A stretch of DNA of 64,000 nt from Marsupella aquatica (GCA_973895155.1 OZ316891.1:24117899-24181898), one strand, 5' to 3'. Positions 28,691 through 57,005 are shown, counted from the stretch's first letter. A program made the numbers and translations. The notes: generated by a model from the letters alone, not told the origin.

Positions 28691-29012
28691 TGTTAAGGAT
28701 TGCTCTTAGTCTTGTGACTCATAGGTTACGACACTTAGGCTAACCACAGTTAGGGTCTTAGCTCAGGTTAGGTTAGTCATGTGTAACCTTGTATATACCA
28801 GGGCTAGTGTAAGCCGCTAGTGCATGGTGCTTACTCATTGTAACAGAGCAACTTGAGGAAGAGCAAGAGCATGTGTGTTCGTCTACTCTTGAAGTAAAGC
28901 TTGAGTGTTCGTGCGGACGTAGCCTTGGAGAAGAGGTGAACCACGTAGAGATTGTGTCGACTACAACAAGAAGCCTTAAAGGATGGGTCTAAGGCCTTAA
29001 TTCCTTTTTCCA
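28691..29012 (+). mobile_element. Copia-type solo LTR (about 322 bp)
   Basis: Starts TGTTAAG and ends TTCCA; TATATA box; GACGTAGCC...AACCAC motif shared with the LTR at 23878-24201; near-TSD TAAAA/AAAAA. Confidence 0.65.
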
Positions 29013-29285
29013 AAAAAATATGATTTTTAGAAATGTAGTCCTAAAACAAGCAATAAAATCAGCATATTTGTTTGACATTCACCCTTTGCATTTTAAACTA
29101 GACTTTACATCAATGTTTGAGACAAAACATATTCGAAACTTGATTTTCATAGAATTGACCTGTCAAAAACAATCATTTATATCATAGTCTAGGCTCCAAG
29201 GCCATTGACATCTCAAAACTTGCAAGTAAAGTCTACTTCTATGCAACTAAAACAACCCTAAAAAGTCTTACAGAAATATCCTCAG

Positions 29286-31888
29286 CTAATCATCTCTTGT
29301 TTCCTCAACACTTCCAACAACTCCTGAAGAGTCAAGTCCTATGATTTCCTCCTCTCCAACTCCTATCTCTGGTATTGGTAGAATGGTCTCTTGAACATCA
29401 ACATCTAAATCCACCATGCCTTTGCCATCATCTTCCTCAATATTGTCCACCAGGTTTAGAATTCTCCCTTTCAAGACACTACTCTAGCGCTCATCAATTT
29501 CTACAGCAACACAATGTCTTCCTTGTGCCAAAGAGGAAGACAATCCTGTGCCTGACCGTAAACAAATATCTAGCACCCAGTCTCCAACCTGGCTAAAGTG
29601 GGTAACTTCCCAATCCAATAACACTCTTGGCTTCTGGTAAAAGTTCACCATCTTATTGTCCCCGTTGTGTTTCAACTTATTGGTCACAGCTGGACACACA
29701 ACCACATTATTTCGAGACTCATTAGTCTCAAAATTGAAATGCTCCAAAGACCGTTTCCCATCCTGACTATGAAAGCCAATGGTGAAACACTCAAAATTGT
29801 TGTTAAGCCTTAATTGCACCTCCTGCATTCTTAACATTGTCTTTCACCCTGCAAAAACCAAACTTGCATTATGGATTTGTTTCAAAATCAAACATCATGA
29901 AATCATGAACACCAAAAAAATTTATTCACCTTTTGAAATGTTTCTTACCAAATACAATTCTGGAAACCACCATTACACTCAGCTTTCAAGACAGTCTTGA
30001 CAGCATCATACTGGTCAATACTATGATGAATGATAATTCGCCAAAGATTTGCCTTGGTGACAACCTTGAAGGACTGAACCATCTTGGTCACCTCTTCCAC
30101 ACCCCATCCAACATTGTCTTCGTGAAGACAAGCAATCATTCCAAACCCATACGGAATATCTGCCAAAGCCAATGTGTAAGCTCGTGATGGGATTACCTCG
30201 TGCAACCGCTGAGCATCGTGTGTAAAGAGATCATAGTACACATCCCCAAACTGTGGATGCTCAAAAGCATTAGGATGAAGTTCACTTCCGTGGGTCTCTT
30301 GGCAAGATTTCTTCATTGCCAACCAGTTCTGTGCTTGTGCAATATGTGCATTGAACTTATCTGGGAAGGACTTCAACTCTTTGCTTTCTTCATTCTCTCC
30401 CTTCTTTTTTCGGGAGCTGCTGTCTTTCTGAGAAAACAAAATTGGGTACATGAGATTCCTACATACTTAAGAATAAAACTGTAAAACAAATGCTCAGTCA
30501 ATCTCAAATAAACTTACCCAAGTCTGGAAGACAGGAACAAAATTCTTCAGCACATTATCAGTGCAGTGTTTTGGGTACTTGGTTTTGCAATTCTTCCAAC
30601 TCTCTTCGTCACAAAGACAGGTAAGAAATGCTTTTTGAACTTGCATTTGGAATTTGTGTCGTTGAAATTCCTGTCCCATCTCTTGAAGAGATAATTCCTT
30701 TGCCAAAACTCTTTGTAGCACTGGACAGATCATGTCCGTATCTTTCAATGCCTGCATGTGTCTCCACTCAGTCAACTTCATATCCTCACATAGCATTTTA
30801 GCATCTCCAGACTTGGACATCTTTTTCTTGGTCTTATCTCCTTTCTGTCCTTTTATCTCACAATTCTCCCATCTGTCAAAGATCTGCCGTATGAAAGACC
30901 AAACAAGATCCTTACAAAATGCCAACTGAAATAAATTATCATTGGCATTCAAAACCTCAGAATCTTTACGTACACCCCAGTCCTTTAGATTGATTTTAGT
31001 GGCACACTCCTTGAAATCAACATTTGATGATGATCCATTCTCTACAAATCGCATGTGAATGTAATTCCCTCTTTGGATGGTGCTCATTTGTTGACGAAAT
31101 TCAGAGTATATTATGACACCAAGCTAAGTTCCTTGCTTCCTGGATAGACAGACCTGCAAAGATCCAAGATTGCACTCTCCTGTACGACTTGTTGTTGGGA
31201 AATTGTAATGCTAGGTTGCCTTTGCACAAGCAGAATGATTTCCCCCAATCATGTAATAGTGGTAATCATTCTTTTTTGAGAAATCAAAATCAGCTCGAGT
31301 TGGGCACTCCTTGGGATCAACCAAGAGAACAAAAGGTGCTGCCAATGGACTAGCTCCAGTTGCTTTCATCCTTGTTGTCAACTGTGTAAGAAAGTAGGGT
31401 TGGATATGCCTTACTTGGTACACTGGCAACTCCAAAGATTTCTCCCGGACAGGTGGGTGAAGTTGTGCAATGTCAATTGTGATTGTCTCCTCTTGAACTC
31501 CACACCTCATCAAAATCCCTTCCTGGTACACCACCCGAGCATCCATAGACATAGATTGAGCCTTCTGCTCCAGATGAGTGGGGACTTTTTCCAACGTCTG
31601 CTTCTTGGATTTTGGTGGACTTGATCTTGCACCTTGAGAACCCTCTGGTCCACGTTTCTTTGATGAAGTCCGAGTACCGGTAGTGCCCTGTGCTGATCCT
31701 CCAGTCACAGTTGTCCCCTCTTGTGATCTTGCAATTTGTGAACCAGCACCAGATATTGGAGATGTAACAACCATCTTTCTTGCTGGGACAGAACTCGGAC
31801 AAGATCCGAAAGGAGCAGAAGAAGGACCAGACTTTGGTGGATGGGCACTGGCACTCTTCTCTGCTGCTTTTTGAAGAATCTCCCTAGA
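29286..31888 (-). pseudogene. 3' part of spliced gene: ParB/Srx-like domain plus beta-class N6-adenine/N4-cytosine DNA methyltransferase
   Basis: ParB-like IDIAQL...QVR...YYMIGGNHSACAK...WIFAGLSIQEARNLAWCHN; motif IV LALADIPYG (30149-30160); CIWVK; FYQKPRVLLDWEVTHFSQVGDWVLDICLRSGTGLSSSLAQGRHCVAVEID (motif X-I-II); GT-AG introns 30428-30517 and 29849-29948; several frameshifts and one TAG. Confidence 0.88.
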
Positions 31889-34800
31889 TGTCAAACACTT
31901 GCCAAGGAGCTTAAGCGGCTTTTCTCCCCAAAAGACTACCTAATACCTGCTCCATGTCATACCAGGGTCACAAAGGATTGACAAAACTTCTGAAGTGTGC
32001 TTACAATGTCCAATCACTCCATACATAAGTAGTTTCAACTCTCCACTTCTAGAGAGGTAGTCCCCTTGACTACTTTTGTACTCACCCCTTCCCCTCTCCT
32101 CTACTCCAAGGATCAGCAAGGGGGATCTCCGCTCCAAGCTGTCACCTTAGAGTAGATTCTCACACAAACACCCAAGAACCCAAAGTACTTTCCTCTTCAA
32201 GCTTAAGTCTCCTCAAGACCCTCAAAGTAGTGTTACCCCTCAACCTTGCCCCCCTGGCCTTGGTTTGGGTCCACACATCCCCTTTGAGCCCTAGAGAAGG
32301 CTCCTCTATCTAAGGACTCTTCCTCTTGTTCTTACTTCTTGTTAACACCACACACCAAGCAAAGTACTTTCCACCCTCAAGCTATAATCCTCTCTAAGTC
32401 TCAAAGTAATGCTATACCTTAACCTTGCCTCCTTGGCCTTGGTTTTGTACTAGCACATCCCCTTCAAGCTTAGACCAAGATTATACCATAGCATGGACTC
32501 TTCTCTTGCTCTCATATACTTCAAATGCACTCACACTTAATGGTCACAATGAAGATTGGTAAGTCTCCTTTTATTGCATCACCTTTACAACAAAAGTTCA
32601 CTACACATTCTCCACACTAAGCATGGACCACCTCTCCTTTCTCAAGCTTAGCCCTACCTTGGCAAGGTAGAGATTTCACTTAAGAGATGAGACTCCCGGT
32701 CCCTAACAAATGAAAACTTCCTCCTTATATACTATCTCCTTCCACATCACACCAAGCTTGACCTGGGGTCCAACTATACCTCCCCCAAGTCCTCCTAACA
32801 CACAAAGTCCAACTCTATAGTTCATAGCCCACCCTACTACTTGCTATTTTGCCTCCTTCCAAGCCCTGGAATATGCCACACATGAGTGGTATGCTTTGAC
32901 TTCCAAACCTACTCCCACTTATGGTCCTCCTCACCAGCTTACCAACCCACTTGAAAGCTCGCAAAAAGAGTGAGTGAGTCTCAAGTTGTGCCTAGTCAAA
33001 GTTGGCCTTATTTTACTTGTAACCCCTTTACTACCCTAAGTAAACTACCCCCTATATTTACTTTTCTTAACTTGATGGCCTTACACCTTTGGCCAAAGGT
33101 AAGTACCCTTCTCTAGAGCCTAACTCAAGTGGTATGGGTGCAAGAAAGGTCAGCCCCTAAATCTGGTATTCATTCCCCTATGCCGACTTTGGTTTGCAAG
33201 TTGTCGGGACTCCCTCGTGGCCTCGGTTAAAAATATATTTGAGTGATTACTTTTCTGGGGTTCCACCTTCACCAGGGGGTGCCTTATCTTCCCCTAACTC
33301 AGCACAAAAAAATTTGGGCCCCAACGGATACCTCTAGCCAAAGTTATGCCCATTCTCCCAAGGCCTGTTTTTGGTGTAAAGCGGGTGTAAGCGGCGGCCC
33401 GATTACACTTACCTTACATGCCCCTTATGGGGATTCCACGTGTCATGAGGGGAGAGCACTCTCATTATACTCATGTTTCTTATGAAGAATTTGTAAGGAC
33501 AGCAATGTTTGCAGCCATTTCTCTCTCGTGAATTCAATCTAAAACCACAGCATTCTCTATTGGATTCTTTCTTGTGCAGCAGTCCAGCTGATCAGCCGCC
33601 AGCCCCTCAATTTCACAGCCACCATAGCTCACAGCCAGCCTAGTCAATTTCGCAGCTAGCCCACCTCTTCAATTTTGCCGCTAGCAACACAGTCAATTTC
33701 GCAGCTAGCAGCACAGTCACATCAGCGCATTTACAGCACAACAACAGCAGATTTGAAGCACAGCAGCAGCAACCATAGCTTGATTCCTTCTCAGTCAAGC
33801 AGGTCTCTCTTCTCAATTTCGTAGCTGCCCACCTTTGCAATTTCGCAGCTAGCAGCAGCATCATTCAATTCAGCAGCATCAAGGCAGCAGCCAGCCAATT
33901 CTCATGAGCATCTCGTGCCTGATTAGTAGGAGCACCTCTAATCTAGTGTGCAGCTGTCATAGCAGCAAGCAGCCTTCCCAATTCAAAGCCAGCAGCGATC
34001 CTAATTTGCAGCCATAGCTCTTTTCCTTCTCAGCAGCCATAGCTTCTTCAATCAGCAACAGCCCTTGCTTCTTCAATCAGCAGCAGCCATTTCAATTCAG
34101 CCGCCCTTCCTTCAATTCAGCCGCCCTTGTGCTCAATTGATTCCTCAAGTAATCATGCAGCACCTTTGGACAGCCTCCCGGTGCTTGACGTCCTCACCAG
34201 CCTCGTGCTTGCTCCTCCTTGCCTCGTGCTCGCTCCTCCTTGCCTCGTGCTCGCCGCGTGATCGTCGCCCACGCGGTTTACACTTAGAAAAAAATACATT
34301 TTTTTTTTGGAAAAACAGCATTTTGGGGCGATTTTGGACCCCCCTCCAAAACTCACACATAAGTCCAAAAGGACTTCTGAGTAGCTCCACTGATTCTATG
34401 GACATAGGACTATGTCCGGGTTTACTAAGATATAAACAAAACCCTATAACAACTTTTCTAAAATTAGGCAAAGAGGGTCAAGTCTTTATGTCTTCCAAAA
34501 TTCTTCTCAACTTTGAGATGCTCCCAAAAAGTAACCAAGTGTGACAAAGTTGTCCCACAAGTTTCTAGGGATAGAGGGGACCATACTTAACCCACTTCCA
34601 AACTTGGAACCCCTACATTTACCCATCAGCTATTTTTCCCGGGACCCGCTATTTGGTAACTTTGATTTTTGCCAAAATACTTATAACTCCTAGGTTAAGA
34701 CCCCACTTGACTTCATACTTTTTCAGGGTTCCCTAGGGACCTCCCAGCACCCATGGGGGAAATATCAGCCAAAAATAAGATGTCCGGTGTCGGGTCATTT

Positions 34801-35052
34801 TTCGGTCCCGACTTAGTCGCCTATTATAACTAAGGACGGACTAGTTTCCTGCCCCTCCTATAGTAACTTGCTTACCCCTAGATAACTTTGCATAACTAAA
34901 TTCCCTCTTACCTCTACTAAGCTTCCCTTCTTACTTAAGTGCCCTAAACCTAGCTACTCTGATAGCACTAAAACTTTTTCCCTAACTATTTCCTCTTCTA
35001 AACGAAAGAATGTCATGTTTCTCTACACTAGCTGACACTGAGCCATCCCACA
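31889..35052 (-). repeat. 3' LTR (3,164 bp)
   Basis: Direct repeat of 41216-44379 at an offset of 9327; the ORF tracks are identical in both copies. Confidence 0.98.
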
Positions 35053-35064
35053 TAGCCCCCTACT
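35053..35064 (-). promoter_or_regulatory. Polypurine tract AGTAGGGGGCTA
   Basis: Directly upstream of the 3' LTR on the minus strand. Confidence 0.85.
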
Positions 35065-35092
35065 TAAGTGTGCAGCGTCCCCGCAAACACAC

Positions 35093-38000
35093 TTATTCCT
35101 GATTAAAGTACCTTTTCAACCTATCATGATGCACTCTAGTAGGGAACACCTCTCCTTCAAGAGTAGCAAGCTGAATTGACCCATTAGCATAAACCTGGTG
35201 AACAACATAAGGACCCAACCACCGAGTATGCAACTTGCCTGGAAAATGAGCATACCTACTGTCATAGAGTAATACCAGTTGTCCAGCAAGTAAAGAAGTT
35301 GGCTTCTTCAACTTCTTGTCATGATGTTGCTTCACTTGAGCTTGCTTCTTCTTCACTTGCTTGCTTGCCTCTTCCCGGATTTCCTCCAACTCCTCCAGCT
35401 GGTAAGCTCTCTCCATTAAACTCTGGTCAGCCTCCATTCTCTCCTCCACACTTACCCTCAAAGTAGGCACTTCAAACTCAACAGGTACAAGGGAGTGTTG
35501 TCCAAATACTAGGTAGAAAGGACTATGGCCGGTTGTGGTCTTGAAAGCAAGGTTGTAGGAGTACACAGCTGAGTATAATTTGTCATCCCAATCAGTCTTG
35601 TGTGCCGCCACGGTTTTGTTCAAGATCTTGCCAATGATGCCATTAGCTCTCTCCGTTAATCCATTGGCCTTGGGGTGATAGGGGGTGGTCTTCCTATGCT
35701 TAATCAAGTAATGGTTAGTGAGCTCCTCCACAACTTCATTCAAGAAGTGAGTCCCCCTATCACTAACCAGCTCTAGAGGTGGCCCAAATCTGGTAAAAAT
35801 CTGTTGATACATGAACCTTGCTACTGTGAGAGCATTATCCTTGCTGGTTGGTCTTGCCTCTACCCACTTAGTAGCATAATCAGTTGCAAGAAGGATGTAT
35901 CGATTCCTTCTAGACCTGGTCACAGGAGTGATGGGACCTATGAAATCTATACCCCACTTCTCAAAAGGTGCAAGAGGTAAGATGGTGGTAAGAGGGTGAT
36001 GCCTTGAGTGAGCTGGCTTACCTGTCCTTTGGCAAGGGTCACATCCCCTCACAAAAAGACTTACATCCTTATGAAGTGTTGGCCACCAATACCCTGCATC
36101 AAGAATTTTCCTTGCTGTTGTTGCACTTGCATAATGGCCACCAGCCTCCTCCTCATGCATAGCTCTCATCACAATGGAGATTTCCTTCTTCTCCAAACAC
36201 CTCCTTAGTCTCCCATCAACTCCTTCCTTGTGAAGGACACCCTTCACCAATAAGTAAGGTCTGATTTTTCTCAGGAAAACAGCAGCCTCCTCTTGGTTCA
36301 AATCTCTTGGTAGCCGGGTTGTGAGAAGAAATTGGATGATATCCAAATACCATGTATCTCCTCCACTTCCCACATGAAAGAGGTCTTCATCTGGAAACTG
36401 ATCATCCACCTCCTTCAAGTCCTCTTCTCCTTCAATCCTTGAGAAGAAGTCTGCATTCCCATGCTTCTTACCAGGCCTGACCCTCACCTCATAATCAAAC
36501 TCTTGGAGCAACAAGATCCACCTTGCCACTCTACCAGTTACATCAGGTTTATTCACCATATACTTGAGAGCATTGTGATCAGTATGAAAGACCACCTTAT
36601 AGCCCAACAAGTAGTGCCTAAACTTCTTACAAGAGTAGATGATTCCTAGAGCTTCTCTATCGGTTGGTGAGTAATTCTTTTCAGCTGGTGCCAATAGTCT
36701 ACTTGCAAAGTAGATAGGGTGATCCCTATTCTGGTCATCAAGTTGACTAAGCACCACACCAATACAAAAGCCAGACACATCCACATACACATGAAATTCT
36801 CTACTCCAATCTGGTGCTATCAAGATAGGGGCTTCAACCAACCTGTTCTTCAACTCCTGAAAACTTGCTAGCCTCTCAACTGAGGGTTCAACCTCAGCCC
36901 CCTTCTTAAGCATGCTGGTTAGGGGTAAAGCTACTTTAGCAAAGTCCTTAATGAACCTTCTATAGTAGTTTAAACATCCCAAGAATCCCCTCAACTCTGT
37001 CACTGAAGTTGGAAACTTGACAGCCATCCAAACAGCAACCTTCTCTTGGTCCACTTCTATGCCCTTCTTGGATACCTTGTGGCCAAGTAGTATCCCTTCT
37101 TCCACACCAAAGAAGCACTTCCCTGGGTGAAGCTTCAAACCAACTTCCCTACATCTTTGGAAGGTCATCCTCAAATGTTCAACATGGTCCTTCCCCCTTC
37201 CAAAAACAGCAAAGTCATCTATGAATACTTCCAAGAACTTTCTCAAGTAGTCATGAAAGATATTCATCATCAACCTTTGGAACATACCAGGGGCATTACA
37301 AAGACCAAAAGGCATCCTCCGAAAGGCATAAATCCCCCACTCAGTAGTAAAGGCTGTCTTCAACTGGTCCTCCTTCCTTATCCAAATCTGGTTGTAACCT
37401 GAGTACCCATCTAGGAAGCTATACACTTCCCAACCAGCTACTAAATCAAGTACCATATCAGTAAATGGAATGGGATAGTGGTCCTTCTTAGTGGCCTCAT
37501 TGAGTTTCCTAAAGTCTTGGCAAACTCGGATCTTAGGCTTACCATCCAAGCCTGGTTTCTTTGGTACTATGACAATTGGAGAAACCCACTCACTATTCAA
37601 CACAGGATAGATGAAACCTGCTTCCAGCAATTTGTCTATCTCTTCCTTCACCATCAAGGAGTACTTGGGATTCATCCGATATTGCCTTTGTCTCACAGGT
37701 GAAGCTCCTAGCATCAAGTCGATTCTATGCTCACCAAGTTCAGGGTTTACACCAGTAAGATCCAAGTGACTCCAAGCAAACACATCCACATATTCACCTA
37801 GCAAATCTTGGATAGTTTTCTCTTCACCTGATCCCAGGGCATTTCCCAAGTTGAAGGTCTTGTCTTGCTGGACAGAGATGGTTCTGTACTGCTCAGCTCG
37901 AATCACCTCCATCTTGTTCCTCATTGTGGAGTCAAAAGTGCCCTCAAGTTGTGCCAACCTCATGCCTCCATAGACGGGTGCATTTTCAGCACTTAACTCC

Positions 38001-41000
38001 TCCTTCTCCTTGCTTGAATGCTGGTCTTCCTGAGTCTCATCCTCCTCTGAGTTTGCAGCCTTCAATTGGTCCTCTAGCTCCTTTATCTTGAGCTTTAACA
38101 AGGCTAAGTGCTTAGCCTTTAACCTCTGGTCATTACTCCTTGTCTTGATCTCAACTTGGGCAGCACCCTTGCTGGTCTGATCAACCTCCTGAGCCATTGT
38201 GATAGTGTCTTCTTGGTTGCTCTCCTTGGCTGAGGTCTCAGCCTGCTTCACCTCCTCGAGACTGGTCACTTCACTGAGACTGGGCAGAGGTGAATGGCTG
38301 GTAAGAGCCTCCTGCTCTTGCTCCTCTCCAAACACTTCTTCTTCAGTCCATTGGCTCACCATGTTCAACATGTATACCTCATCCTCATCAGATTCAGATT
38401 TGGTACTCAACTCATCGGAAAGTTCAGAATCATATTCATCCAACTCATCAGTAGTCTCTCCTTGATGCTTGTCATGACCCCATGAAACTGAAGTGGCTGG
38501 TTTGCCAAACCTAAACTCCTTCTTGCCCCAATCAGACACTACTTTGGCTCCATATAGCCAAGGCCTCCCAATCAAGATTGGGTAAGTAGATGGCCTTGCT
38601 GGTCTCATCACCAAGTAATTCAACAAGAACTCCTGCCCCCCAATGAGAGTAGGTACTTGAGTAAGTGTCCCCACCGGTAGCACTCTTGCTCCATTTGCTA
38701 GCCTCATTGTCCTTGCTGTTGGCTGAAGTTTCTTGAAACCTAGTTGTTGGGCAGTAGCCTCAATCATGATATTCACACCTGAGCCTCCATCAACTGGTAC
38801 ATACGAGAGTACACACCCATTTACTTGAACATCAATCTCAGGTGCTCCAAGGTCTTCACAAACCATCATCACATCAGCTGGGGTACCAACCTTTGGAAGC
38901 TTCCTTCTTCTCCTTCCTACCAACATCTCCTTCAGTTGCCTCCTATACAAAGGGTTGTCTTTGATCAGCTGCCCCACTGTAGCAGTAACCAAACAATCTT
39001 TCACATCCTTCTTGATGTCATAAGAGGGTACCTTGCTGGTCTCTTTCTTCTCTTCCACCTCAGCTTTTTCCTTCAAAGCTTTAGCAACCTTCAGGTCTTT
39101 GTTGATGGCCTCTTGATGCTCCTTAGCCTCCATCTCCTCTAGTTGCCTCTTGACTTCCTCATTCACCTTGGGATAGAAGAGCTTCGGATGGTCTCTCTTG
39201 TAGTCACTATCTTCAGCTGGTGGGACTTGAACTTCTGCTCCAACTTCAACTTCGATTGGTGACTCCGTTGAGTGCTCCTTTCTCTCCTTCCTCTTCTTCC
39301 TCTCTTCCACTCTTTCCTTCTTTCTTGTGGACCTGGTAGACACCTTGTAACACACAGCTTCCTCCTCAGGTGTCTCCATTCCTGGTAGATCTGGCTGGTT
39401 CTCCCCACCAGCAACTTGTGTCACTCCATCTTTGGCCTCCTCTTGCCACTCCATACTCAAGAAGTTCACTGTGGCTTCACCGGGAGCCTTGGCAACCGCT
39501 GGTGGTGGTGCTTCTATCCTTCCTATCATCATCTTGGCAGCAGATCCAATAGGACAGTTGGCTGTGGTATGACCCTCCCTTTTGCACACAGCACAAAGAG
39601 GATAGGGAGCTCCTTGTCCCTGCCTCCTTGGTTCGGGGCAACTGTTGGAATAGTGCCCTGGTTTTTGACAGTTCCAGCAGATCACCACGGTAGTTCTTGC
39701 CACTCCCCCAGGTCCTTGAGGTCCCATTTGATCCACCATCCTTGGTTGAAGACCAGGCATCAGTTGAGGTGCCATGGGTGGAGCTGGTCTTCCTTGCAAA
39801 GTTCTTGGGCCTCCTGAAATCTGGTACACCATCTCCGGGGCTTCTTCATAGAAGTAGTCCACCACTTCACTTGCTTGATAAACATCGTTGGACTCTTCAT
39901 TGACATACTGAACTTGATTCCTCCAACCTTGACACTCTTGAGGTGTATGGCCAAAACTCTTGCACTTGACACACCATACATGGGCTCTATTCACCGGCAC
40001 TTTTCTCCTATCAGGTTGCACACCAGCAAAGTGAACTGATAGGGCCTTGAGTTGGTTGGTGATCTCACTCATCTTGTTATCCATCACCTTCTTCTCCTTG
40101 GTTGCTGGTGTAGAACCTTCCACCAAGTTGAAGGTTGCAGATTTGTGGTGCTTACCACCTGGCTTCTTCTTGCTGGCTCTCCTCTTCTGGTCGCTTTTTC
40201 TCTTTGCCTTCTTCTTCTTCTTCTTCTTCTTCTTCTCGGAGTCCTCCTCAGAATCAGATTCTGAATCAGAACTGGAACTACTCTCCTCAGATTCCGACTC
40301 AGAAGTATCCTCAACTGAACTACTTGATTCACTTGAGCTAGAAGAAGAATCACTATAAGCAAATCGCTTCTTCTTTCTCCTACTCTTGGAACTAGAGATC
40401 TCAGCACTCCTATAAGACTGAGCCGCCTCAATGGCCTCATCCAACGTATTAGGGTGAGATTGCCTTACTGAGACACCCATCTTCTTGGGTAGGCTTGCCA
40501 CAAACCAAGCCAACAACATGGAGTCTACTGGTCTGGGGTCAAGCTTGGTAGCTAACCTTTGAAACCTTTGCAGAAACCTCCTTACTGACTCCTTGGATCC
40601 CATTCTGATCTCTCCCATCTTGATCAGAGCTTCCGATTCTTCTCCCACCTTCCTAAACTCCTGCAAGAATGCTAGCTTGAAGGCATCCCAATCATTCTTG
40701 ATGGCATTTGATAGGCTATTGAACCAAGGTCTTGCTTCTCCTCTCAAGACCCCCGCCAAAGTGGTCAACTTAATATCAAACTCTCCATTGGCTTGGGCTG
40801 TCCCAATGAAGTCCTCCAACCAAGCATCAGGATCCTCCTTGGGCTTGCCATGGAATGTCTTGTACTGAAATCTTGCTCTTTGAGTCACCACCATGGCTGC
40901 TTCTTGATCTTCACTTGTGTTGGTAGTGGAAGAAGATGTATCACTCCACCCTACACCAGGTTCCGCTTCAGCTTGCAAATGAATGTCCACCCAATCTGGT

Positions 41001-41071
41001 TGCTCCAACTGGTCACCAAAGTTGAAACTAAGAGAGGCTTCTTTTAGTGCTTGACTCCTTGTAGTGGGCAT
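35093..41071 (-). CDS. Gypsy gag-pol polyprotein (gag, three CCHC knuckles, PR, RT, RNase H, INT)
   Basis: Likely start MPTTRSQ at 41071; CVKCKSFGHTPQEC, CWNCQKPGHYSNSC, CAVCKREGHTTANC; VDGGSG; MPFGLCNAP; FIDD; WGIDF...SDRG...ER; GPY motif; no chromodomain. Confidence 0.97.
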   Translation of the reverse strand: MPTTRSQALKEASLSFNFGDQLEQPDWVDIHLQAEAEPGVGWSDTSSSTTNTSEDQEAAMVVTQRARFQYKTFHGKPKEDPDAWLEDFIGTAQANGEFDIKLTTLAGVLRGEARPWFNSLSNAIKNDWDAFKLAFLQEFRKVGEESEALIKMGEIRMGSKESVRRFLQRFQRLATKLDPRPVDSMLLAWFVASLPKKMGVSVRQSHPNTLDEAIEAAQSYRSAEISSSKSRRKKKRFAYSDSSSSSSESSSSVEDTSESESEESSSSSDSESDSEEDSEKKKKKKKKKAKRKSDQKRRASKKKPGGKHHKSATFNLVEGSTPATKEKKVMDNKMSEITNQLKALSVHFAGVQPDRRKVPVNRAHVWCVKCKSFGHTPQECQGWRNQVQYVNEESNDVYQASEVVDYFYEEAPEMVYQISGGPRTLQGRPAPPMAPQLMPGLQPRMVDQMGPQGPGGVARTTVVICWNCQKPGHYSNSCPEPRRQGQGAPYPLCAVCKREGHTTANCPIGSAAKMMIGRIEAPPPAVAKAPGEATVNFLSMEWQEEAKDGVTQVAGGENQPDLPGMETPEEEAVCYKVSTRSTRKKERVEERKKRKERKEHSTESPIEVEVGAEVQVPPAEDSDYKRDHPKLFYPKVNEEVKRQLEEMEAKEHQEAINKDLKVAKALKEKAEVEEKKETSKVPSYDIKKDVKDCLVTATVGQLIKDNPLYRRQLKEMLVGRRRRKLPKVGTPADVMMVCEDLGAPEIDVQVNGCVLSYVPVDGGSGVNIMIEATAQQLGFKKLQPTARTMRLANGARVLPVGTLTQVPTLIGGQEFLLNYLVMRPARPSTYPILIGRPWLYGAKVVSDWGKKEFRFGKPATSVSWGHDKHQGETTDELDEYDSELSDELSTKSESDEDEVYMLNMVSQWTEEEVFGEEQEQEALTSHSPLPSLSEVTSLEEVKQAETSAKESNQEDTITMAQEVDQTSKGAAQVEIKTRSNDQRLKAKHLALLKLKIKELEDQLKAANSEEDETQEDQHSSKEKEELSAENAPVYGGMRLAQLEGTFDSTMRNKMEVIRAEQYRTISVQQDKTFNLGNALGSGEEKTIQDLLGEYVDVFAWSHLDLTGVNPELGEHRIDLMLGASPVRQRQYRMNPKYSLMVKEEIDKLLEAGFIYPVLNSEWVSPIVIVPKKPGLDGKPKIRVCQDFRKLNEATKKDHYPIPFTDMVLDLVAGWEVYSFLDGYSGYNQIWIRKEDQLKTAFTTEWGIYAFRRMPFGLCNAPGMFQRLMMNIFHDYLRKFLEVFIDDFAVFGRGKDHVEHLRMTFQRCREVGLKLHPGKCFFGVEEGILLGHKVSKKGIEVDQEKVAVWMAVKFPTSVTELRGFLGCLNYYRRFIKDFAKVALPLTSMLKKGAEVEPSVERLASFQELKNRLVEAPILIAPDWSREFHVYVDVSGFCIGVVLSQLDDQNRDHPIYFASRLLAPAEKNYSPTDREALGIIYSCKKFRHYLLGYKVVFHTDHNALKYMVNKPDVTGRVARWILLLQEFDYEVRVRPGKKHGNADFFSRIEGEEDLKEVDDQFPDEDLFHVGSGGDTWYLDIIQFLLTTRLPRDLNQEEAAVFLRKIRPYLLVKGVLHKEGVDGRLRRCLEKKEISIVMRAMHEEEAGGHYASATTARKILDAGYWWPTLHKDVSLFVRGCDPCQRTGKPAHSRHHPLTTILPLAPFEKWGIDFIGPITPVTRSRRNRYILLATDYATKWVEARPTSKDNALTVARFMYQQIFTRFGPPLELVSDRGTHFLNEVVEELTNHYLIKHRKTTPYHPKANGLTERANGIIGKILNKTVAAHKTDWDDKLYSAVYSYNLAFKTTTGHSPFYLVFGQHSLVPVEFEVPTLRVSVEERMEADQSLMERAYQLEELEEIREEASKQVKKKQAQVKQHHDKKLKKPTSLLAGQLVLLYDSRYAHFPGKLHTRWLGPYVVHQVYANGSIQLATLEGEVFPTRVHHDRLKRYFNQE

Positions 41072-41176
41072 GCCACTCACAATCACCTTCTTATCTCCCT
41101 TCTTCTCTTGAACAGCAAACCTGCAAACACACCTCCAAGTCTTGTGGCTCCACTCCAACAAAAACTGTAAAGAGTT

Positions 41177-41195
41177 GTCCCCGGCAGCGGCGCCA
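41177..41195 (-). promoter_or_regulatory. PBS TGGCGCCGCTGCCGGGGAC (Athila-like, tRNA-Asp type)
   Basis: 20 nt downstream of the 5' LTR end on the minus strand. Confidence 0.8.
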
Positions 41196-41215
41196 AAAAC
41201 AAGGGTGGGACTCTA

Positions 41216-44200
41216 TGTCAAACACTTGCCAAGGAGCTTAAGCGGCTTTTCTCCCCAAAAGACTACCTAATACCTGCTCCATGTCATACCAGGGTCACAA
41301 AGGATTGACAAAACTTCTGAAGTGTGCTTACAATGTCCAATCACTCCATACATAAGTAGTTTCAACTCTCCACTTCTAGAGAGGTAGTCCCCTTGACTAC
41401 TTTTGTACTCACCCCTTCCCCTCTCCTCTACTCCAAGGATCAGCAAGGGGGATCTCCGCTCCAAGCTGTCACCTTAGAGTAGATTCTCACACAAACACCC
41501 AAGAACCCAAAGTACTTTCCTCTTCAAGCTTAAGTCTCCTCAAGACCCTCAAAGTAGTGTTACCCCTCAACCTTGCCCCCCTGGCCTTGGTTTGGGTCCA
41601 CACATCCCCTTTGAGCCCTAGAGAAGGCTCCTCTATCTAAGGACTCTTCCTCTTGTTCTTACTTCTTGTTAACACCACACACCAAGCAAAGTACTTTCCA
41701 CCCTCAAGCTATAATCCTCTCTAAGTCTCAAAGTAATGCTATACCTTAACCTTGCCTCCTTGGCCTTGGTTTTGTACTAGCACATCCCCTTCAAGCTTAG
41801 ACCAAGATTATACCATAGCATGGACTCTTCTCTTGCTCTCATATACTTCAAATGCACTCACACTTAATGGTCACAATGAAGATTGGTAAGTCTCCTTTTA
41901 TTGCATCACCTTTACAACAAAAGTTCACTACACATTCTCCACACTAAGCATGGACCACCTCTCCTTTCTCAAGCTTAGCCCTACCTTGGCAAGGTAGAGA
42001 TTTCACTTAAGAGATGAGACTCCCGGTCCCTAACAAATGAAAACTTCCTCCTTATATACTATCTCCTTCCACATCACACCAAGCTTGACCTGGGGTCCAA
42101 CTATACCTCCCCCAAGTCCTCCTAACACACAAAGTCCAACTCTATAGTTCATAGCCCACCCTACTACTTGCTATTTTGCCTCCTTCCAAGCCCTGGAATA
42201 TGCCACACATGAGTGGTATGCTTTGACTTCCAAACCTACTCCCACTTATGGTCCTCCTCACCAGCTTACCAACCCACTTGAAAGCTCGCAAAAAGAGTGA
42301 GTGAGTCTCAAGTTGTGCCTAGTCAAAGTTGGCCTTATTTTACTTGTAACCCCTTTACTACCCTAAGTAAACTACCCCCTATATTTACTTTTCTTAACTT
42401 GATGGCCTTACACCTTTGGCCAAAGGTAAGTACCCTTCTCTAGAGCCTAACTCAAGTGGTATGGGTGCAAGAAAGGTCAGCCCCTAAATCTGGTATTCAT
42501 TCCCCTATGCCGACTTTGGTTTGCAAGTTGTCGGGACTCCCTCGTGGCCTCGGTTAAAAATATATTTGAGTGATTACTTTTCTGGGGTTCCACCTTCACC
42601 AGGGGGTGCCTTATCTTCCCCTAACTCAGCACAAAAAAATTTGGGCCCCAACGGATACCTCTAGCCAAAGTTATGCCCATTCTCCCAAGGCCTGTTTTTG
42701 GTGTAAAGCGGGTGTAAGCGGCGGCCCGATTACACTTACCTTACATGCCCCTTATGGGGATTCCACGTGTCATGAGGGGAGAGCACTCTCATTATACTCA
42801 TGTTTCTTATGAAGAATTTGTAAGGACAGCAATGTTTGCAGCCATTTCTCTCTCGTGAATTCAATCTAAAACCACAGCATTCTCTATTGGATTCTTTCTT
42901 GTGCAGCAGTCCAGCTGATCAGCCGCCAGCCCCTCAATTTCACAGCCACCATAGCTCACAGCCAGCCTAGTCAATTTCGCAGCTAGCCCACCTCTTCAAT
43001 TTTGCCGCTAGCAACACAGTCAATTTCGCAGCTAGCAGCACAGTCACATCAGCGCATTTACAGCACAACAACAGCAGATTTGAAGCACAGCAGCAGCAAC
43101 CATAGCTTGATTCCTTCTCAGTCAAGCAGGTCTCTCTTCTCAATTTCGTAGCTGCCCACCTTTGCAATTTCGCAGCTAGCAGCAGCATCATTCAATTCAG
43201 CAGCATCAAGGCAGCAGCCAGCCAATTCTCATGAGCATCTCGTGCCTGATTAGTAGGAGCACCTCTAATCTAGTGTGCAGCTGTCATAGCAGCAAGCAGC
43301 CTTCCCAATTCAAAGCCAGCAGCGATCCTAATTTGCAGCCATAGCTCTTTTCCTTCTCAGCAGCCATAGCTTCTTCAATCAGCAACAGCCCTTGCTTCTT
43401 CAATCAGCAGCAGCCATTTCAATTCAGCCGCCCTTCCTTCAATTCAGCCGCCCTTGTGCTCAATTGATTCCTCAAGTAATCATGCAGCACCTTTGGACAG
43501 CCTCCCGGTGCTTGACGTCCTCACCAGCCTCGTGCTTGCTCCTCCTTGCCTCGTGCTCGCTCCTCCTTGCCTCGTGCTCGCCGCGTGATCGTCGCCCACG
43601 CGGTTTACACTTAGAAAAAAATACATTTTTTTTTTGGAAAAACAGCATTTTGGGGCGATTTTGGACCCCCCTCCAAAACTCACACATAAGTCCAAAAGGA
43701 CTTCTGAGTAGCTCCACTGATTCTATGGACATAGGACTATGTCCGGGTTTACTAAGATATAAACAAAACCCTATAACAACTTTTCTAAAATTAGGCAAAG
43801 AGGGTCAAGTCTTTATGTCTTCCAAAATTCTTCTCAACTTTGAGATGCTCCCAAAAAGTAACCAAGTGTGACAAAGTTGTCCCACAAGTTTCTAGGGATA
43901 GAGGGGACCATACTTAACCCACTTCCAAACTTGGAACCCCTACATTTACCCATCAGCTATTTTTCCCGGGACCCGCTATTTGGTAACTTTGATTTTTGCC
44001 AAAATACTTATAACTCCTAGGTTAAGACCCCACTTGACTTCATACTTTTTCAGGGTTCCCTAGGGACCTCCCAGCACCCATGGGGGAAATATCAGCCAAA
44101 AATAAGATGTCCGGTGTCGGGTCATTTTTCGGTCCCGACTTAGTCGCCTATTATAACTAAGGACGGACTAGTTTCCTGCCCCTCCTATAGTAACTTGCTT

Positions 44201-44379
44201 ACCCCTAGATAACTTTGCATAACTAAATTCCCTCTTACCTCTACTAAGCTTCCCTTCTTACTTAAGTGCCCTAAACCTAGCTACTCTGATAGCACTAAAA
44301 CTTTTTCCCTAACTATTTCCTCTTCTAAACGAAAGAATGTCATGTTTCTCTACACTAGCTGACACTGAGCCATCCCACA
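41216..44379 (-). repeat. 5' LTR (3,164 bp)
   Basis: TG...CA termini; duplicate of 31889-35052. Confidence 0.98.
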
Positions 44380-45050
44380 CTAGACTTTCAAATTGCACTC
44401 TTCAATGTGCTGGCATGATGTTCAAACACAAAACCAGCAATGAGCTCTGCAATCTCATCGTAGCTTTCTTCTGCAGACATATTCTTCACCTTCTCAATAA
44501 TCATCTCAATGTCATCAGGCAAGTAACATGCACAACTCTTCCAGAAAATCTCTCACTGTCAACTGCAATCAGTGTAGATGTCTCCTTTGTTGTGATAAGC
44601 ATATTGAGGACATCAGCCCCTCGTCGAAAGACATCAATCCGGCCATAATTCACCCAACCAAGACCTCCAGAAGGCAAGGTCTCATAGATGCACAACATCA
44701 AAAAAGGCTTCTTCCACGATTCTGTACCCAATGATATTGTCCAGGAAGAGTTTCCAAAATCTGTCAATGCATGCTCAACAAAAATAGTGTCTAACACCTT
44801 CTCCTGTGATTTTGGTTCAACCATTCTGACTTCCTGAAATCAAGTCCAACAATGCAAAGTCAACTTTGTTTGTTTTTCAAGTTCAGTTGCAGAATTCAGG
44901 TTCATGATTTCATGAAGCAAGGTTCTTACCTTGACAGTGTGAGTCGGAAGTTGAATTTGCAGCGCTTGAGCCTAGACGGTTGTTCCCGCTTAGAAGAGCG
45001 TCACTGGTATTTTTCTCCTTGATTTTGGCTTAGCTTATGTCCTTCACCTC
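44380..45050 (-). pseudogene. 5' part of the ParB-methyltransferase gene
   Basis: Frame ...FEHHASTLKSAI*KS|REILQKAAEK joins across the Gypsy TSD to ORF 31211-31894; GT-AG intron 44834-44929; true start not identifiable. Confidence 0.72.
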
Positions 45051-45139
45051 CCTGGCAGATGCCCGAGCTGATCGACCCCTCCCCACTTAATGTCGTTTGC
45101 AATGTCCTCCCCGATTTGGACCTTGTCTCTTCGGCGATG

Positions 45140-45470
45140 GACCTCCCCTGGCCCTTCGACAGTTTCTCCTCCCCCGGCCTTCGCCAATTTCTTCCTCCCC
45201 TGGCGCTTCAACTATTTCCCCTCCCCCAACCTTTGATGCTTCAGCCCCGTGCCTCGACACTTTTTCCTCCCCCCGCGCCTCGACACTATTTCCTCTCCCA
45301 GGCCTTTGCCAAGTTTGCCTCCCCGAGGCTGGCGCTTCTTCCCCGCGCCCCCGGCTGCACCTCGACAATTTTTCGTCCCTCCCCTGGCCTTCAAGAATTT
45401 CTCCCCCCTCCCCCAAATTTTGCCAATTTCCTCTCCCCAGGCCTTCGACAATCCCCTTCTCGAGCGCAAA
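45140..45470. repeat. Degenerate C-rich minisatellite (TTCCTCCCCC...CCTTCGACAA-like units)
   Basis: Roughly 10 imperfect units of about 25-35 bp; produces several overlapping low-complexity ORFs. Confidence 0.7.
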
Positions 45471-45809
45471 CTTGCACGACAGCTTTTGATCTTGCTGCCT
45501 CCTAACCAAATTTCTTCCAATCCCTTCCATGATTAATCCTCTGTTCCACAACCGATCTGCGCCTCAACAGTCAGGAAATTACAGAGCTGCACCAGATGGT
45601 GGTCCGCCCCCAATTTTCAGTTCCAGTTTAGGGATTCAACCCAACTCCTATTCAGACCACACCAATCACTGAGGGAAGAACACCAAGCATCAGCCCACCA
45701 TAGCTCTTCACCAAGCTTCCTTTCCGTTCGCCCTTTGCAGATGCATGCCCACACTCCAAGCACCTGACAGTCCAATTTGTCTCAAACTTAGCATTTTCTA
45801 ATTTTTGGG

Positions 45810-45885
45810 TTCATGAATTCATGAAGCTTTCGCCACCTTCACTTCAGGAATCCAGGAAGGTCGTAACCCTTCATGAATTCATGAA
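45810..45885. promoter_or_regulatory. Two perfect TTCATGAATTCATGAA palindromes in the divergent intergenic region
   Basis: Exact copies at 45810-45825 and 45870-45885; their function is inferred. Confidence 0.6.
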
Positions 45886-46453
45886 AGGGAATCAAGTATC
45901 ATTTTGAAAGAATCTAGTAAAAAGTCAAAATTTGGGCCCAAAATAACCAATACCATGGGTAAAAGAAATACAAGAAAAACCAAGAAAACCTCTAAAAACA
46001 GAGGTCATAGAAGACATTTTTGGTTGCAATTGAATAGTCTCCAAAAACATGAAAGAAAACATGGGGTAAAAATGACCAATGCATTACTGATACACTATCT
46101 TAAGAGTTTGGCATGAAAACACATGCTTTCAGTAAAAAATAAAATTATGAGAAGACTCACAATATTTTAGGAGAAGACTTCACAGGAATGAATTAACCAA
46201 GTCTCCAAGAACTCTAATGAGTATTAGAAACCTGAAAACATAAGTAAACCTGTGAGATTTGGATAAATAATAAACTATTTTCTCATGAAAGATTTCTTTC
46301 CTTGTCACTAATTACTAATGAAGGGCGTGGCCCTTTTTCTTATTTTATTGCTAATTAAGTTTTTGAGTTATTTCCAAAATCTATAAAAGGGGCTTTGTAT
46401 TCATGACTCTATCTCATTTTGATTTTTCAGTTTGAGTTCATTTGGTGTTCTAG

Positions 46454-49400
46454 GTGTTCCCTTGTGAGTTTTGTGCAATTTTTGAAATGGCAGCCTGTTA
46501 TGAGTCAGACGATTATTCGGATGGTATTTCGGATGATGTTTCCTTCCCGGATTGTCCTTGTCCTGTTACTTCTCCAGATGCTCCTAGTAAAACCACTATT
46601 TTGGAGATGCTTCCCCCAACTCCAATGAGTAAGTTGAAAGGAAAGGCTCTAAGTGTACCAAATATTAAGCAAAAAGTATTTGGTCCTTGTCTGAGTGAGC
46701 ACTCTGAGTCTTCGGACTCATCTGAGAGTACAAGTCCCCCTGGCCGTCAAGTATTATCGAATCCTTCTGAAAGGGGGATTAAATTGGGTGTGCGTTCTGT
46801 AGGCCCTCAACATAGTGGAGATGTGAAAAAGAGGACTCATGAATTCATGAAGGCCAGATCTGGAGATGTGTCAAAAATGCCCAGTGAAAGCCCAAAAGTG
46901 GATTTTTGTGCACTCCGGGAAAGTCGTGGTGTGCAACATGCACCAATGAAAGAGAGTGAGTATTCTCGTCCTACATCTTTCAGATTTCAAGAAGGAGTGA
47001 GAGCGGAAACAAGGAGGCCTCTTGGAACTGAGACTAATTCAAACAAGGAGAGGATCAATTTGAGAAGATCTCCAGGGAGCTTCGATTGTTTGGCTGAGGT
47101 TGGAAGCGGATCTAAGTTGGCATACAACAAGGGCAAGAAGAAGGTCTTTGAGGAGATTCCAAACAAGAGGCCAAGAGAGTCAACCGAAGGTGGTTTCTTT
47201 GGGGATTCAGATGGAAATCGATCAAACTCACTCCTTTTGAGAATGAAGGAGGAGCCGTTGAGTCCTTGAGGGACGCTCGAGGCCGGGTGAGGAGGGGTTT
47301 GTCTGCATACCAACTCGATAAACTTGTGGAGATATCTTCTTCAATCGAAGAATCTTCTTTTGAGAGTGATGGAGAGCCTGCAGAGAGAGTTATGATGGCT
47401 AATAAATGACCGTCAAATCTCAGCTTGTGTGAAACAAAGATGACAGACGAGGATATCAAGAAGACAAATCGTAAGTACTGTTGTCAACGTCATTGTCTCC
47501 TGAGTCTTTCACCAAAACAAATTCGTGAAGCACGCTCAAAGTTTTTGAGGCAAAAATCTCAGGATCGATCTTTATCTTTGCAGTGGCTCGTCAAGCAAGA
47601 CGGAAATGAAGAGGGGAGGTCCAATGTCACATACATGATTGGACAAAGAGATGTGTGTCGGAAAGCTTTCAAGATGGTCTTTTGTGTAGGAAATGAGAGA
47701 TTGAATAGGATCAAGAAGCTAGGCAATCAAGATCTTGCTTATCCTAGATCGGCTGGTCGACCTCCATCTGTGAGAACATTGGTATTGAGCTCTTGGTTGA
47801 AGTCTTTTTTTGAGACTCGTGTGGAGACTCTACCAAATAAAGATGTTTCACATTTGCCTGATAATTATTCCAAACTAGAAGTTTGGAAATTATATGATTC
47901 AAGCTATGTGATCACTGATGAGTCATCCAAAATATCATATCGACAATTTTTGAAAGTATGGTCACAAGACTTTGGGCATGTGAAGATTCCTCCTGTGAAT
48001 TGTTTTAGTGCTTGTGCGGACTGTGAGGAATTCAAAACAATTCGAGACAAAGGAGTCTCTGAAACTGAAAAACGTAAGTCATTTTCATTTTTGTTGTTTT
48101 GAACATGTCTTTGTATTAGATTTGTCAGGAAATCAATTGAGTAATGGGTAAACATTATGAATGAATTTCAAGTTAACAACGTTGCTCTACCATTTTTGGA
48201 TTCATTGCAGGGAGAGGAGAAATAATGTTACAAAAACATCGAGAACAACAATCGAAAGAGCGGGAAAAACTAGCAAAGCATCGAAAGAAATTTTTCACAA
48301 ACCCAGAAAAATATTTGGGAGTTGTGATTGATGGAATGGATCAAAAAAAGACTAGATTACCCCATTGGCCACGTCCTCCAAAATCCGTTGATGAGGCCTG
48401 TTTAATCCAAATGCATGTGGTTGGTTGTCTTCTTTTCCACGGAGCACTATTTTCTAGGGTGTTCCTTAATTATCCAGTTCTCCATAATGATGGAAATCTT
48501 ACCATTACTATTTTACAAAGAGTATTCCTAGAATACCAAGAGAAGTATGGGGGCCTTCCACCAGTTTTTTACCTTCAGCTTGACAATACAAGTAGGGAAA
48601 ACAAAAACAATTTACTTTTCACATATCTTCACATGCTGGTACAAAAAAAGGTATTTCAAAAAATCAAACTTGGATTCCTCTTAGTTGGACACACCCATGA
48701 TCAAATAGATCAGATGTTTAGTAGGTTCTAAAAAGGCTTGGAAAATTTAAGGCCTTTACCTATGATAGTTTATGTAAGATTATTCAAGAATCTTACCAAC
48801 CCCAACCTGAAATTACCCTTTTAAATGAGACATATGATTTTCGAAAATTTGCTTTCTCAGAGCCTGCTTTGATCAGAGAAAGGATACAAAATGTTACTTT
48901 TCATCACCAATATAAAATTTCTTTTGCTTGTGAAGATGATCAAGTTCCAACACAATGGGGGAAGAAATTTTCCGCCGACACGGTTTGGAAACCAGAAGGA
49001 GGTGTTAAATTGTTGAAAGAAGACATGCCACCAAAGGTGATTGGGTGCTCTGATGGGATGCCACTTATCAAGAAAGGAGACAAGAAACGAGATGACGGAA
49101 GGGCGGGAAATCAAGCTCATGTATCATCTTCAGGAAAAATGACCCTGTCCGAAATGGATGATTGTTTGAATGAAATTCAAAAAGGTATATTTGCAGCTCA
49201 GATATTATTCTCGAAAGAAGAAGTTGTTTGGTGGACTTCTTTTTTTGAGGAACAAAGAGAATTCAATCGATCTCTCTTGCTTGAAGAAAGACCTTTGATC
49301 TCTCCATTTGAATGGCCCAAGGCACAAGGGGATACAAATGTTGAAGCTGATCTTGGAGCTGAACTGCTTACAACTATATTGAATGAGGAAGAAATTGAAG

Positions 49401-49957
49401 AGAGAGTGTACGGTCCAACTAGAGAAATTTATGTTGGTCCATATCGAAATCAAGAAAAGATAGATGCAGAGAAGGAGAATATGGAAGGTGATTTTTCGGA
49501 TTTGGAAATCAACACATTTATTTCTGTGTCCGGAGAGAAGTCTGAATCATTTTGGGTGGCTAAAGTAGAAAAAATTGTTCTTCGCGATGAGGCTCACATC
49601 CCAAAGATTATCTCAGTTCTGTGGCATGCAGCAAAGAAAGGATCCGACCCTTGGAAAGGAAAATATCTGCCAGAAGTGTTGAGTTACGAGAAGAAGAAAA
49701 GTGGACAAGGCAAGGGAACCTTGAAACCAGTTTGGTTTCGTCAAGACCTTGATCTGTCTTCAACTACGGTCTTTGCATATAATTTTATGCTAACAAGGTC
49801 TGATACTCTTTACAAGAAAACAATAGATCGTATTAAAATACGACTCTCGGAATTTCTCAAGGAGGAGAAAGACCAAGAAGGTGAAGGTAGCATAGTTAGA
49901 AATTATCAACAAGAAACTTCAATGGAAGTTCCTCTAGAAATGAATGGTAGGAATTGA
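46454..49957 (+). pseudogene. Sola-like DDD transposase (DGMDQ / QLDN..ENKN / GHTH..IDQ family)
   Basis: CCQRHCL, VCRKAF and FSACADC zinc ligands; IDGMDQK (48330), LQLDNTSRENKN, FLLVGHTHDQIDQMFS; in-phase intron 48074-48210; 1-nt frameshift near 48728; stops near 47267-47410. Confidence 0.85.
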
Positions 49958-56840: not shown

Positions 56841-57005
56841 TAGTTTAATATATATAAGAGACATTGGGTTGCTTTCTTTGCGAACTTCGTTGAAGACTTG
56901 TACAGAATATACAAGGTGGGTATCAGATTCATTAAGACTTGGAGACTCGTAATATCAAGCACCTTTCTACAGATCGTGCAGCTAATGCATAGCGAAGAAC
57001 TCTTC

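Follow-up and report, generated by a model that had tools for sequence, protein, structure and literature searches.

The closest described system to the locus considered here is the transposon Sola1-1_Ec32 of the brown alga Ectocarpus (PMC12477816), a Sola1 element with a 4-bp target-site duplication (TSD) and the termini AAC...GTT, in which a second gene on the opposite strand codes for a ParB-like plus N4C/N6A methyltransferase protein. Self-modification has already been proposed for this element, while the accessible part of the account names no target site of the ParB-methylase and describes no target palindrome. Another related case is that of the Plavaka accessory genes PAG2 and PAG3 of Bostrychia (10.1101/2025.02.11.637652), where a PF01555 methylase is also borne on a transposon and where a ParB-like protein, PAG3, lies beside inverted repeats and is proposed to bind its own element. 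For land plants, it has been stated that they hold few N6A methyltransferases (PMC4738411).

The locus analysed here lies in a 64,000-nucleotide stretch of DNA from the land plant Marsupella aquatica (the window, from whose first letter positions are counted), and it has the same architecture, with a ParB-like plus N4/N6 methylase gene opposite the transposase gene inside a Sola1-type element. We propose that this two-gene transposon encodes a ParB-methylase that binds the element's own palindromic dyad, TCATG-N4-CATGA, and writes N6-methyladenine on the element, a reading that we favour tentatively and hold at a little short of an even chance. The first-pass annotation, which was made from the sequence, overrated the novelty of this gene combination, since the Ectocarpus element has already been published with this architecture and with the proposal of self-modification (PMC12477816, in its accessible part). 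What is new here is the occurrence of the known architecture in land plants together with a defined candidate target site; in the literature covered, which took in subscription papers and Repbase thinly, no account was found of such cargo in land plants or of such a dyad.

The element and its insertion site

The Marsupella aquatica unit is a 9,166-bp Sola1-type DNA transposon that runs from 28965 to 50626 when a Gypsy insertion is subtracted, and that without the Gypsy element contains exactly two genes, placed head-to-head, the methylase gene on the minus strand and the transposase gene on the plus strand. Its main features and those of its flanks are as follows.

28691 to 28964, unstranded: left part of a solo LTR, high-copy, with a TG start preceded by the 5-bp TSD TAAAA at 28686-28690; read depth very high, with a loose end at 28691
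28965 to 28988, unstranded: left terminal inverted repeat (TIR), 24 bp, beginning AAC, identical to the right TIR at 22 of 24 positions
31889 to 44379, minus strand: Gypsy LTR retrotransposon sitting in methylase exon 2, with identical 3,165-bp LTRs, TG...CA ends and the 5-bp TSD CTAGA
45142 to 45445, unstranded: C-rich degenerate tandem repeat of 26 bp in the intergenic region
46487 to 49957, plus strand: DUF7869 (Sola1-type) transposase gene, with an intron at 48074-48210, frameshifts and stops, and a dyad at 46837-46850 in exon 1
50603 to 50626, unstranded: right TIR, terminating in GTT and followed by the TSD CTAC at 50627-50630
50631 to 50688, unstranded: right part of the solo LTR, with a CA end and then TAAAA

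The element is flanked on each side by the 4-bp duplication CTAC (left copy at 28961-28964), as for Sola1, and its 24-bp TIRs with the ends AAC...GTT match the AACCG-CGGTT of Sola1-1_Ec32, whereas the TSD of Sola2 is given as the AT-rich AWWT (PMC3627910), from which CTAC differs. The target of the insertion was a solo LTR having its own TAAAA duplication. The empty site is seen in 25 contigs of sequencing run X3, which exit the window at 28964 into the right flank with 28 of 30 positions matching and which are other copies of the LTR. Contigs of run X1 that share about 99% identity with the methylase gene reach a depth of 163-187, compared with 19.8 for a unique flank, a depth that is no measure of copy number, and contigs about 86% identical to the gene are present too; the read coverage spans 27500-32500, on the methylase side of the element. 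The contigs of about 99% identity indicate that the family is repeated and was recently active. The alternative of a single-copy host gene is ruled out by the TIRs, the TSD and the repetition in the sequencing runs. It is also noted that the element is CpG-depleted, with an observed/expected ratio of 0.40 versus 0.57 across the window.

The transposase gene matches DUF7869 (E 2e-37), a family that we provisionally equate with the Sola1 transposase. The gene has three conserved Asp motifs, IDGMD (48327), LDNT (48579) and HDQID (48696), which presumably hold the catalytic residues, judging from the motifs of Sola transposases. Relatives of the transposase (123 of 214 candidates) occur in Riccia, Adiantum, Ceratopteris, Chara, Branchiostoma and Ptychodera.

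Much of what the first-pass annotation had claimed of the element is thus borne out. The Gypsy insertion is confirmed by its identical LTRs, TG...CA ends and CTAGA duplication, and its gag-pol ORF is intact (35093-41212); the head-to-head placement with a transposase holds, given the DUF7869 gene on the plus strand; and the view of the methylase as transposon cargo is upheld by the presence of both genes within one TIR/TSD pair, by the empty site and by neighbouring locus tags in Riccia. The span that it gave, 29286-49957, contains both genes and misses the ends of the element. As a separate observation, the window also encodes a TRI5-like terpene synthase, which, taken with the nearest named relatives, would fit a non-seed plant and probably a liverwort.

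The ParB-like methylase and its family

The methylase gene of this copy is read on the minus strand as follows.

44834 to 44929, minus strand: candidate intron 1, 96 bp, GT-AG, placed by splice consensus; dyad at 44902-44915
44385 to 44833, minus strand: 5' part of exon 2, N-terminal region, with a candidate start Met at 44824, a frameshift and a premature stop at 44390-44388
30518 to 31888, minus strand: 3' part of exon 2, with the ParB/Srx-like core and helical region, box I QVR at 31420-31409, GGNH at 31246-31235 and two frameshifts
30428 to 30517, minus strand: intron 2, 90 bp, GT-AG, with the same donor position in the related loci L001 and L004
29949 to 30427, minus strand: exon 3, with the catalytic motif IV DIPY at 30160-30149
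29849 to 29948, minus strand: intron 3, 100 bp, GT-AG; dyad at 29895-29908
29286 to 29848, minus strand: exon 4, with motifs X (QKP, 29636-29628), I (29570-29544) and II, one frameshift and a premature stop at 29486-29484

Introns 2 and 3 are validated by the Calypogeia fissa protein P0001, whose residues 7-277 align in one frame across both junctions, and the position of intron 3 is common to L001, L002 and L004. Removal of the Gypsy element and of three GT-AG introns had been said to yield a single minus-strand gene, which holds for introns 2 and 3, while intron 1 is a candidate placed by splice consensus and, to judge from the first in-frame Met at 44824, may lie within the 5' UTR; the 5' part of exon 2 resembles the N-termini of the homologues P0007 and P0140. 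GGNH, DIPY, QKP and motif I all lie where they had been placed. The gene is a pseudogene, as had been noted, with four frame changes, two premature stops and the Gypsy insertion, and the transposase gene is broken too.

The folds are read from an AF2 model of the homologue P0151 (pLDDT 82, from a 103-row alignment). The C-terminal part of P0151 matches the solved structures of CcrM (Z 23.6, rmsd 2.7, 220 residues aligned), M.BceJIV (Z 23.0) and MboIIA, with the 4mC enzymes PvuII (Z 20.0) and N4CMT (Z 19.8) close. Its residues 100-240 match the ParB domain of PadC (Z 9.4, rmsd 3.1, 98 aligned), SerK (8.1) and sulfiredoxin (7.6); the alignments with KorB (Z 8.9), a Pnob8-like ParB and Spo0J reach into the helical region with higher rmsd. 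ParB-named phage models in BFVD align over both domains. The beta-class methyltransferase and ParB/Srx folds that had been read from the motifs are supported by the profile and structure searches, with motif IV ahead of X and I as in the beta class. In profile terms, Pfam N6_N4_Mtase on the last exon of this copy gives E 4.7e-5 and 23.9 bits, under the cut-off of 26.7 that homologues exceed. The ParB half matches a PHROG ParB-like profile at E 3e-4 in 1 of 20 proteins and ParB_N in Atlas with high confidence, and neither Pfam ParB (45 family proteins) nor NCBIfam gives a match; the Atlas search had initially returned DUF3723 with very high confidence, a lead and nothing further.

The position of the P-motif (box II) is equated by us from the ParB and Srx motifs. 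At that position, after GGxH, no arginine is found in any of 48 rows, whereas 33 of 34 rows retain the arginine of box I. The P-motif arginine is required for NTP binding (PMC12704722). Its absence with box I retained suggests a ParB-like domain that is no canonical CTPase.

The methylase gene is under strong purifying selection, pS being 0.52-0.93 versus a pN of 0.11-0.30 over 15 pairs, with synonymous sites near saturation. In L001, L002 and L004 the exons are open, and DIPY and the other motifs are intact. A methylase domain that is a non-catalytic or dispensable scaffold, in a protein that is a DNA-binding accessory factor only, would agree with the loss of the aromatic residue of motif IV in animal members (DMP-/DVP-) and in some others, including plant-clade ones (DLPR, DFPC, DIPH, DIPS); MTase domains borne on DIRS elements have also been judged inactive (PMC4738411). 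By contrast, the clade of the window's copy has retained DIPY, QKP and the SAM-binding motif at saturated synonymous distance, and of motif IV the D is found in 54 of 59 rows and the Y in 43 of 58, which makes a scaffold role quite improbable.

For an active enzyme, m6A is the favoured product, as suggested by the DxPY motif, which is never SPPY, and by the closest solved relatives. Of 60 family rows, 42 have D-x-P-aromatic as motif IV and none has a motif IV that begins with S or T. In profile comparison, m6A enzymes reach E values of 1e-14 to 3e-20, whereas N4CMT and PvuII, which are 4mC enzymes, reach 2e-6 and 3e-5, so that the top m6A enzymes score better by at least eight orders of magnitude. 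It had been suggested that such elements could be a source of the 4mC enzymes of Marchantia sperm, and N4-methylcytosine as the product would agree with the shared fold class, with the structural closeness of the 4mC enzymes and with the occurrence of the family in liverworts including Riccia; amino-MTase domains have moreover switched repeatedly between 6mA and 4mC (PMC8885841). However, MpDN4MT1 has TSPPY (10.1101/2021.02.12.428880) and, as described in the accessible text, no extra domains (PMC8885841), and with the motif and profile results above we consider this alternative very unlikely; the Marchantia link, judged here by motif and description rather than by alignment, is not sustained.

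Searched with a profile over both halves of the protein, 1.84 billion proteins give 1,825 matches at E 1e-3, 309 at 1e-10 and 64 at 1e-30. Of 20 clusters looked up from 150 listed, 12 are named, from Chara (4), Riccia (3), Adiantum (2), Ginkgo, Ptychodera and Holothuria (1 each), the last two being marine invertebrates; the plant hosts include liverworts, a fern and Ginkgo. P0001 of Calypogeia fissa is the sole match among 95 candidates, at 61% identity, and the Calypogeia homologues are spread over five different large contigs. In a tree of 51 of 103 rows (those with at least 150 aa in the methylase domain; the labels P0249 and P0286 are mis-picked motifs), Calypogeia, Ginkgo and Adiantum form a group of 24 rows with support 97/93, with Chara and the animals apart; the tree has no prokaryotic rows and is thus silent on origin. 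Relatives were found in none of 467 candidate stretches of viral contigs and none of 76 of prokaryote contigs, and the best phage matches among those listed have 24-28% identity. With a family that spans charophytes, land plants and animals, these results lend no support to a recent prokaryotic origin.

As to linkage with the transposase, the Riccia genes R1sor_010796 (ParB-like plus N6_N4) and R1sor_010795 (DUF7869) bear consecutive locus tags on contigs of equal length, the adjacency being by tag number, and a neighbouring transposase tag is found for at least one of the nine plant homologues that bear tags (Riccia 3, Chara 4, Adiantum 2) among the transposases listed. In L001 an opposite-strand ORF matches the window's transposase at 13 of 20 N-terminal residues (BLAST E 1.4). 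The DUF7869 core was reached in none of six metagenome loci, and no transposase was found in the 9.5 kb of L003. The linkage across relatives thus appears thin.

The dyad and its proposed role

The first-pass account of the element overlooked a palindromic dyad, TCATGA-WW-TCATGA, of which there are six perfect copies in the 9.2-kb element and none in the other 54.8 kb of the window (0.02 by chance). They lie in intron 3, in intron 1, twice in the promoter region, in transposase exon 1 and in the 3' region, where there is a seventh copy with one mismatch. Those outside the genes are the following.

45811 to 45884, unstranded: two perfect 16-bp dyads, at 45811 and 45871, with the core TCATGAATTCATGA, in the bidirectional promoter region
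50045 to 50066, unstranded: two overlapping dyads 3' of the transposase gene, one perfect and one with one mismatch

In all three close loci (L001, L002, L004), TCATG-N4-CATGA is present within intron 3 at a shifted offset, with four upstream copies in L001 and two in L002; the spacer is ATAT in L001 and L004 and CTAG in all three copies of L002. Compared with shuffles, CATG-N4-CATG occurs 6 times versus 0.23 in the element, 6 versus 0.09 in L001, 3 versus 0.08 in L002, 1 versus 0.07 in L004, 1 versus 0.18 in L003, and not at all in L005 and L006; the family dyad was not found in the distant loci L003, L005 and L006. The persistence of the dyad in an intron, at distances where synonymous changes have approached saturation, speaks for a site that is bound, and its restriction to the element together with its presence in the same intron of distant relatives suggests that the enzyme is likely to recognise and mark its own element. 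Outside the dyads neither CATG nor GATC is enriched; GAWWTC shows a mild excess in the element and in L001, not in L002. No CpG or CHG retention was found near the dyads (o/e 0.34 vs 0.42). A scan of viral contigs for the 16-bp dyad showed a single site at each locus among the 80 listed of 120, which is uninformative.

Sites of ParB proteins are palindromic and of 14-16 bp, as is the dyad. In the mechanism that we propose, the ParB-like and helical half would dock on the dyad as a dimer, in the manner of ParB on parS, probably without a canonical CTP switch, as the missing P-motif arginine suggests. The methylase would then mark adenines at or near the dyads in the promoter, the introns and the 3' end, most simply those of the invariant CATG half-sites, and the mark or the bound protein would leave the element open to transcription or transposition in spite of 5mC silencing by the host, in the way that VANC acts for VANDAL elements. 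The 4-bp spacer, differing by family, would give each family its own address.

An alternative is that the dyads bind the transposase or a host factor and that the substrate of the ParB-methylase is RNA or some other DNA. A second transposon-like unit in the window, having no methylase match, carries ten copies of a 15-bp dyad of its own (clustered at 12321-12920 and 19846-21811), the transposase promoter and 3' end are also flanked by dyads in the present element, distant methylase loci lack the dyad, and many eukaryotic N6A-MTases have moved to RNA (PMC4738411). However, the dyad of the second unit clusters toward the unit ends, whereas the present one lies in methylase introns and its copies nearest the TIRs are about 560 and 930 bp away; these differences, the ParB-like length and symmetry of the site and the pairing of ParB with inverted repeats in the Plavaka elements (10.1101/2025.02.11.637652) leave this alternative unlikely.

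It is also conceivable that self-methylation acts as a brake, the marked promoter and ends lowering transposase expression or end binding and so protecting the host. This would be consistent with the two dyads in the bidirectional promoter region and the one in transposase exon 1, with the strong purifying selection, and with the finding that in bacteria a transposase can be kept from binding by methylation of the ends of the transposon (PMC3627910). By contrast, the family is repeated and recently active, as judged from the contigs, and the spread of dyads over introns, intergenic and terminal non-coding DNA is the pattern of VANC anti-silencing (PMC5735166), so that we regard a brake as rather improbable.

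Returning to self-recognition with an anti-silencing role, a wider statement can be made, which we put forward as possible but doubtful: Sola1 transposons of charophytes and land plants may carry a private read-write system, in which a ParB-derived reader acts on family-specific parS-like palindromes in the introns and promoter of the element and the enzyme fused to it writes m6A at these sites, a non-5mC mark belonging to the transposon that counters plant silencing, and which would be a hidden source of 6mA in the genomes of liverworts, ferns and gymnosperms.

Comparison with known systems

Sola1-1_Ec32, to which the present element is likened by architecture and not by protein sequence, differs in its host, a brown alga rather than a land plant, and in its dimensions, being 21.5 kb long where the present element has 9.2 kb, with imperfect TIRs of 282 bp where those here have 24 bp, and coding for a protein of 1104 aa (PMC12477816). 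In the Plavaka elements, unlike here, two separate genes are involved, one joining ParB to a 2OG oxygenase and the other joining the methylase to a SET domain, the repeats are tandem arrays, and the transposase belongs to another superfamily (10.1101/2025.02.11.637652).

The phage ParB plus N6_N4 fusions (PMC12704722) share domain order and folds with the present family, with 12-25% identity in structural matches (BFVD), while the present family has a long helical insert, is spliced and lacks the P-motif arginine. With the beta-class m6A enzymes CcrM, M.BceJIV, M1.HpyAVI, M.RsrI and M.MboIIA it shares the motif order IV-X-I and the fold (Z 19.8-23.6), and it differs from them in sequence (about 20% identity), in having DIPY rather than DPPY and in its ParB-like half. 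MpDN4MT1a/b of Marchantia and N4CMT of bdelloid rotifers are likewise eukaryotic beta-class amino-methyltransferases of prokaryotic type; they are, however, host genes with (T)SPPY that make 4mC, and in their accessible descriptions no ParB domain is reported and no transposon cargo described.

The comparison with VANC of VANDAL (PMC5735166) is one of function, homology not being expected: it too is an accessory protein encoded by the element, paired with short motifs that are specific to the family and lie in introns and in non-coding DNA between the genes and at the ends, but these motifs are not palindromes and have been amplified through tandem repeats. The present element offers a candidate site of 14-16 bp with a spacer that varies by family, together with relatives whose catalytic motifs are intact. 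If active, it would represent a DNA-adenine mark of land plants that is encoded by a transposon, a means of anti-silencing or self-control different from that of VANC, and possibly a tool for sequence-addressed methylation.

A second transposon-like unit and its surroundings

It is noted that, besides the Sola1-type element with its transposase and methylase genes, the window contains a second transposon-like unit, at 12321-21811. This unit and the other genes and repeats are as follows.

Other genes and repeats in the window
324-4166, plus strand: Copia-type gag-pol ORF, 1,280 aa
13040-15009 and 19970-21151: ORFs of the second transposon-like unit
51785-52891, minus strand: ORF for a terpene synthase of the TRI5/microbial type (Pfam match, E 4e-15)
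about 57000-59160: LTR kin to the Gypsy LTRs, diverged (77-95%)
7238-8947, 24598-25922 and 61839-62486: another dispersed repeat, three copies, one inverted, 76-94% alike

The second unit is split by a minus-strand coiled-coil ORF of 1,221 aa, and it carries ten copies of the dyad TAGCGCCNGGCGCTA, which are grouped near its ends (chance 0.04). Its two ORFs gave no Pfam or NCBIfam matches, and the one at 19970-21151 is a paralogue of a further ORF at 25986-26660 (37%, E 1e-26). Note also that the terpene synthase ORF, a gene type known from non-seed plants, sits just beyond the right end of the Sola1-type element.

Variants of the ParB-methylase family

In the metagenome locus L002, which carries a ParB-methylase gene, both upstream dyads (307-380) are centred in longer perfect palindromes, 32 bp each. 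In the animal clade (Holothuria, Ptychodera; homologues P0249/P0293, P0275 and P0276) the ParB-like half is retained, as is the SAM-binding motif, but the motif IV aromatic is lost, and this clade is likely a non-catalytic branch. The Chara model CBR_g41648 (protein P0143) holds two ParB-methylase units in tandem, and in the protein P0229 a SAM (sterile alpha motif) domain is fused to the middle region of the family.

Likeness to fungal DUF3723

The ParB-like half of the homologue P0005 (residues 95-460) resembles, in language-model features (0.97), the fungal family DUF3723, a conserved cargo of Starships. As a lead only, this likeness suggests a possible ParB-like nature for DUF3723 as a protein of mobile elements.
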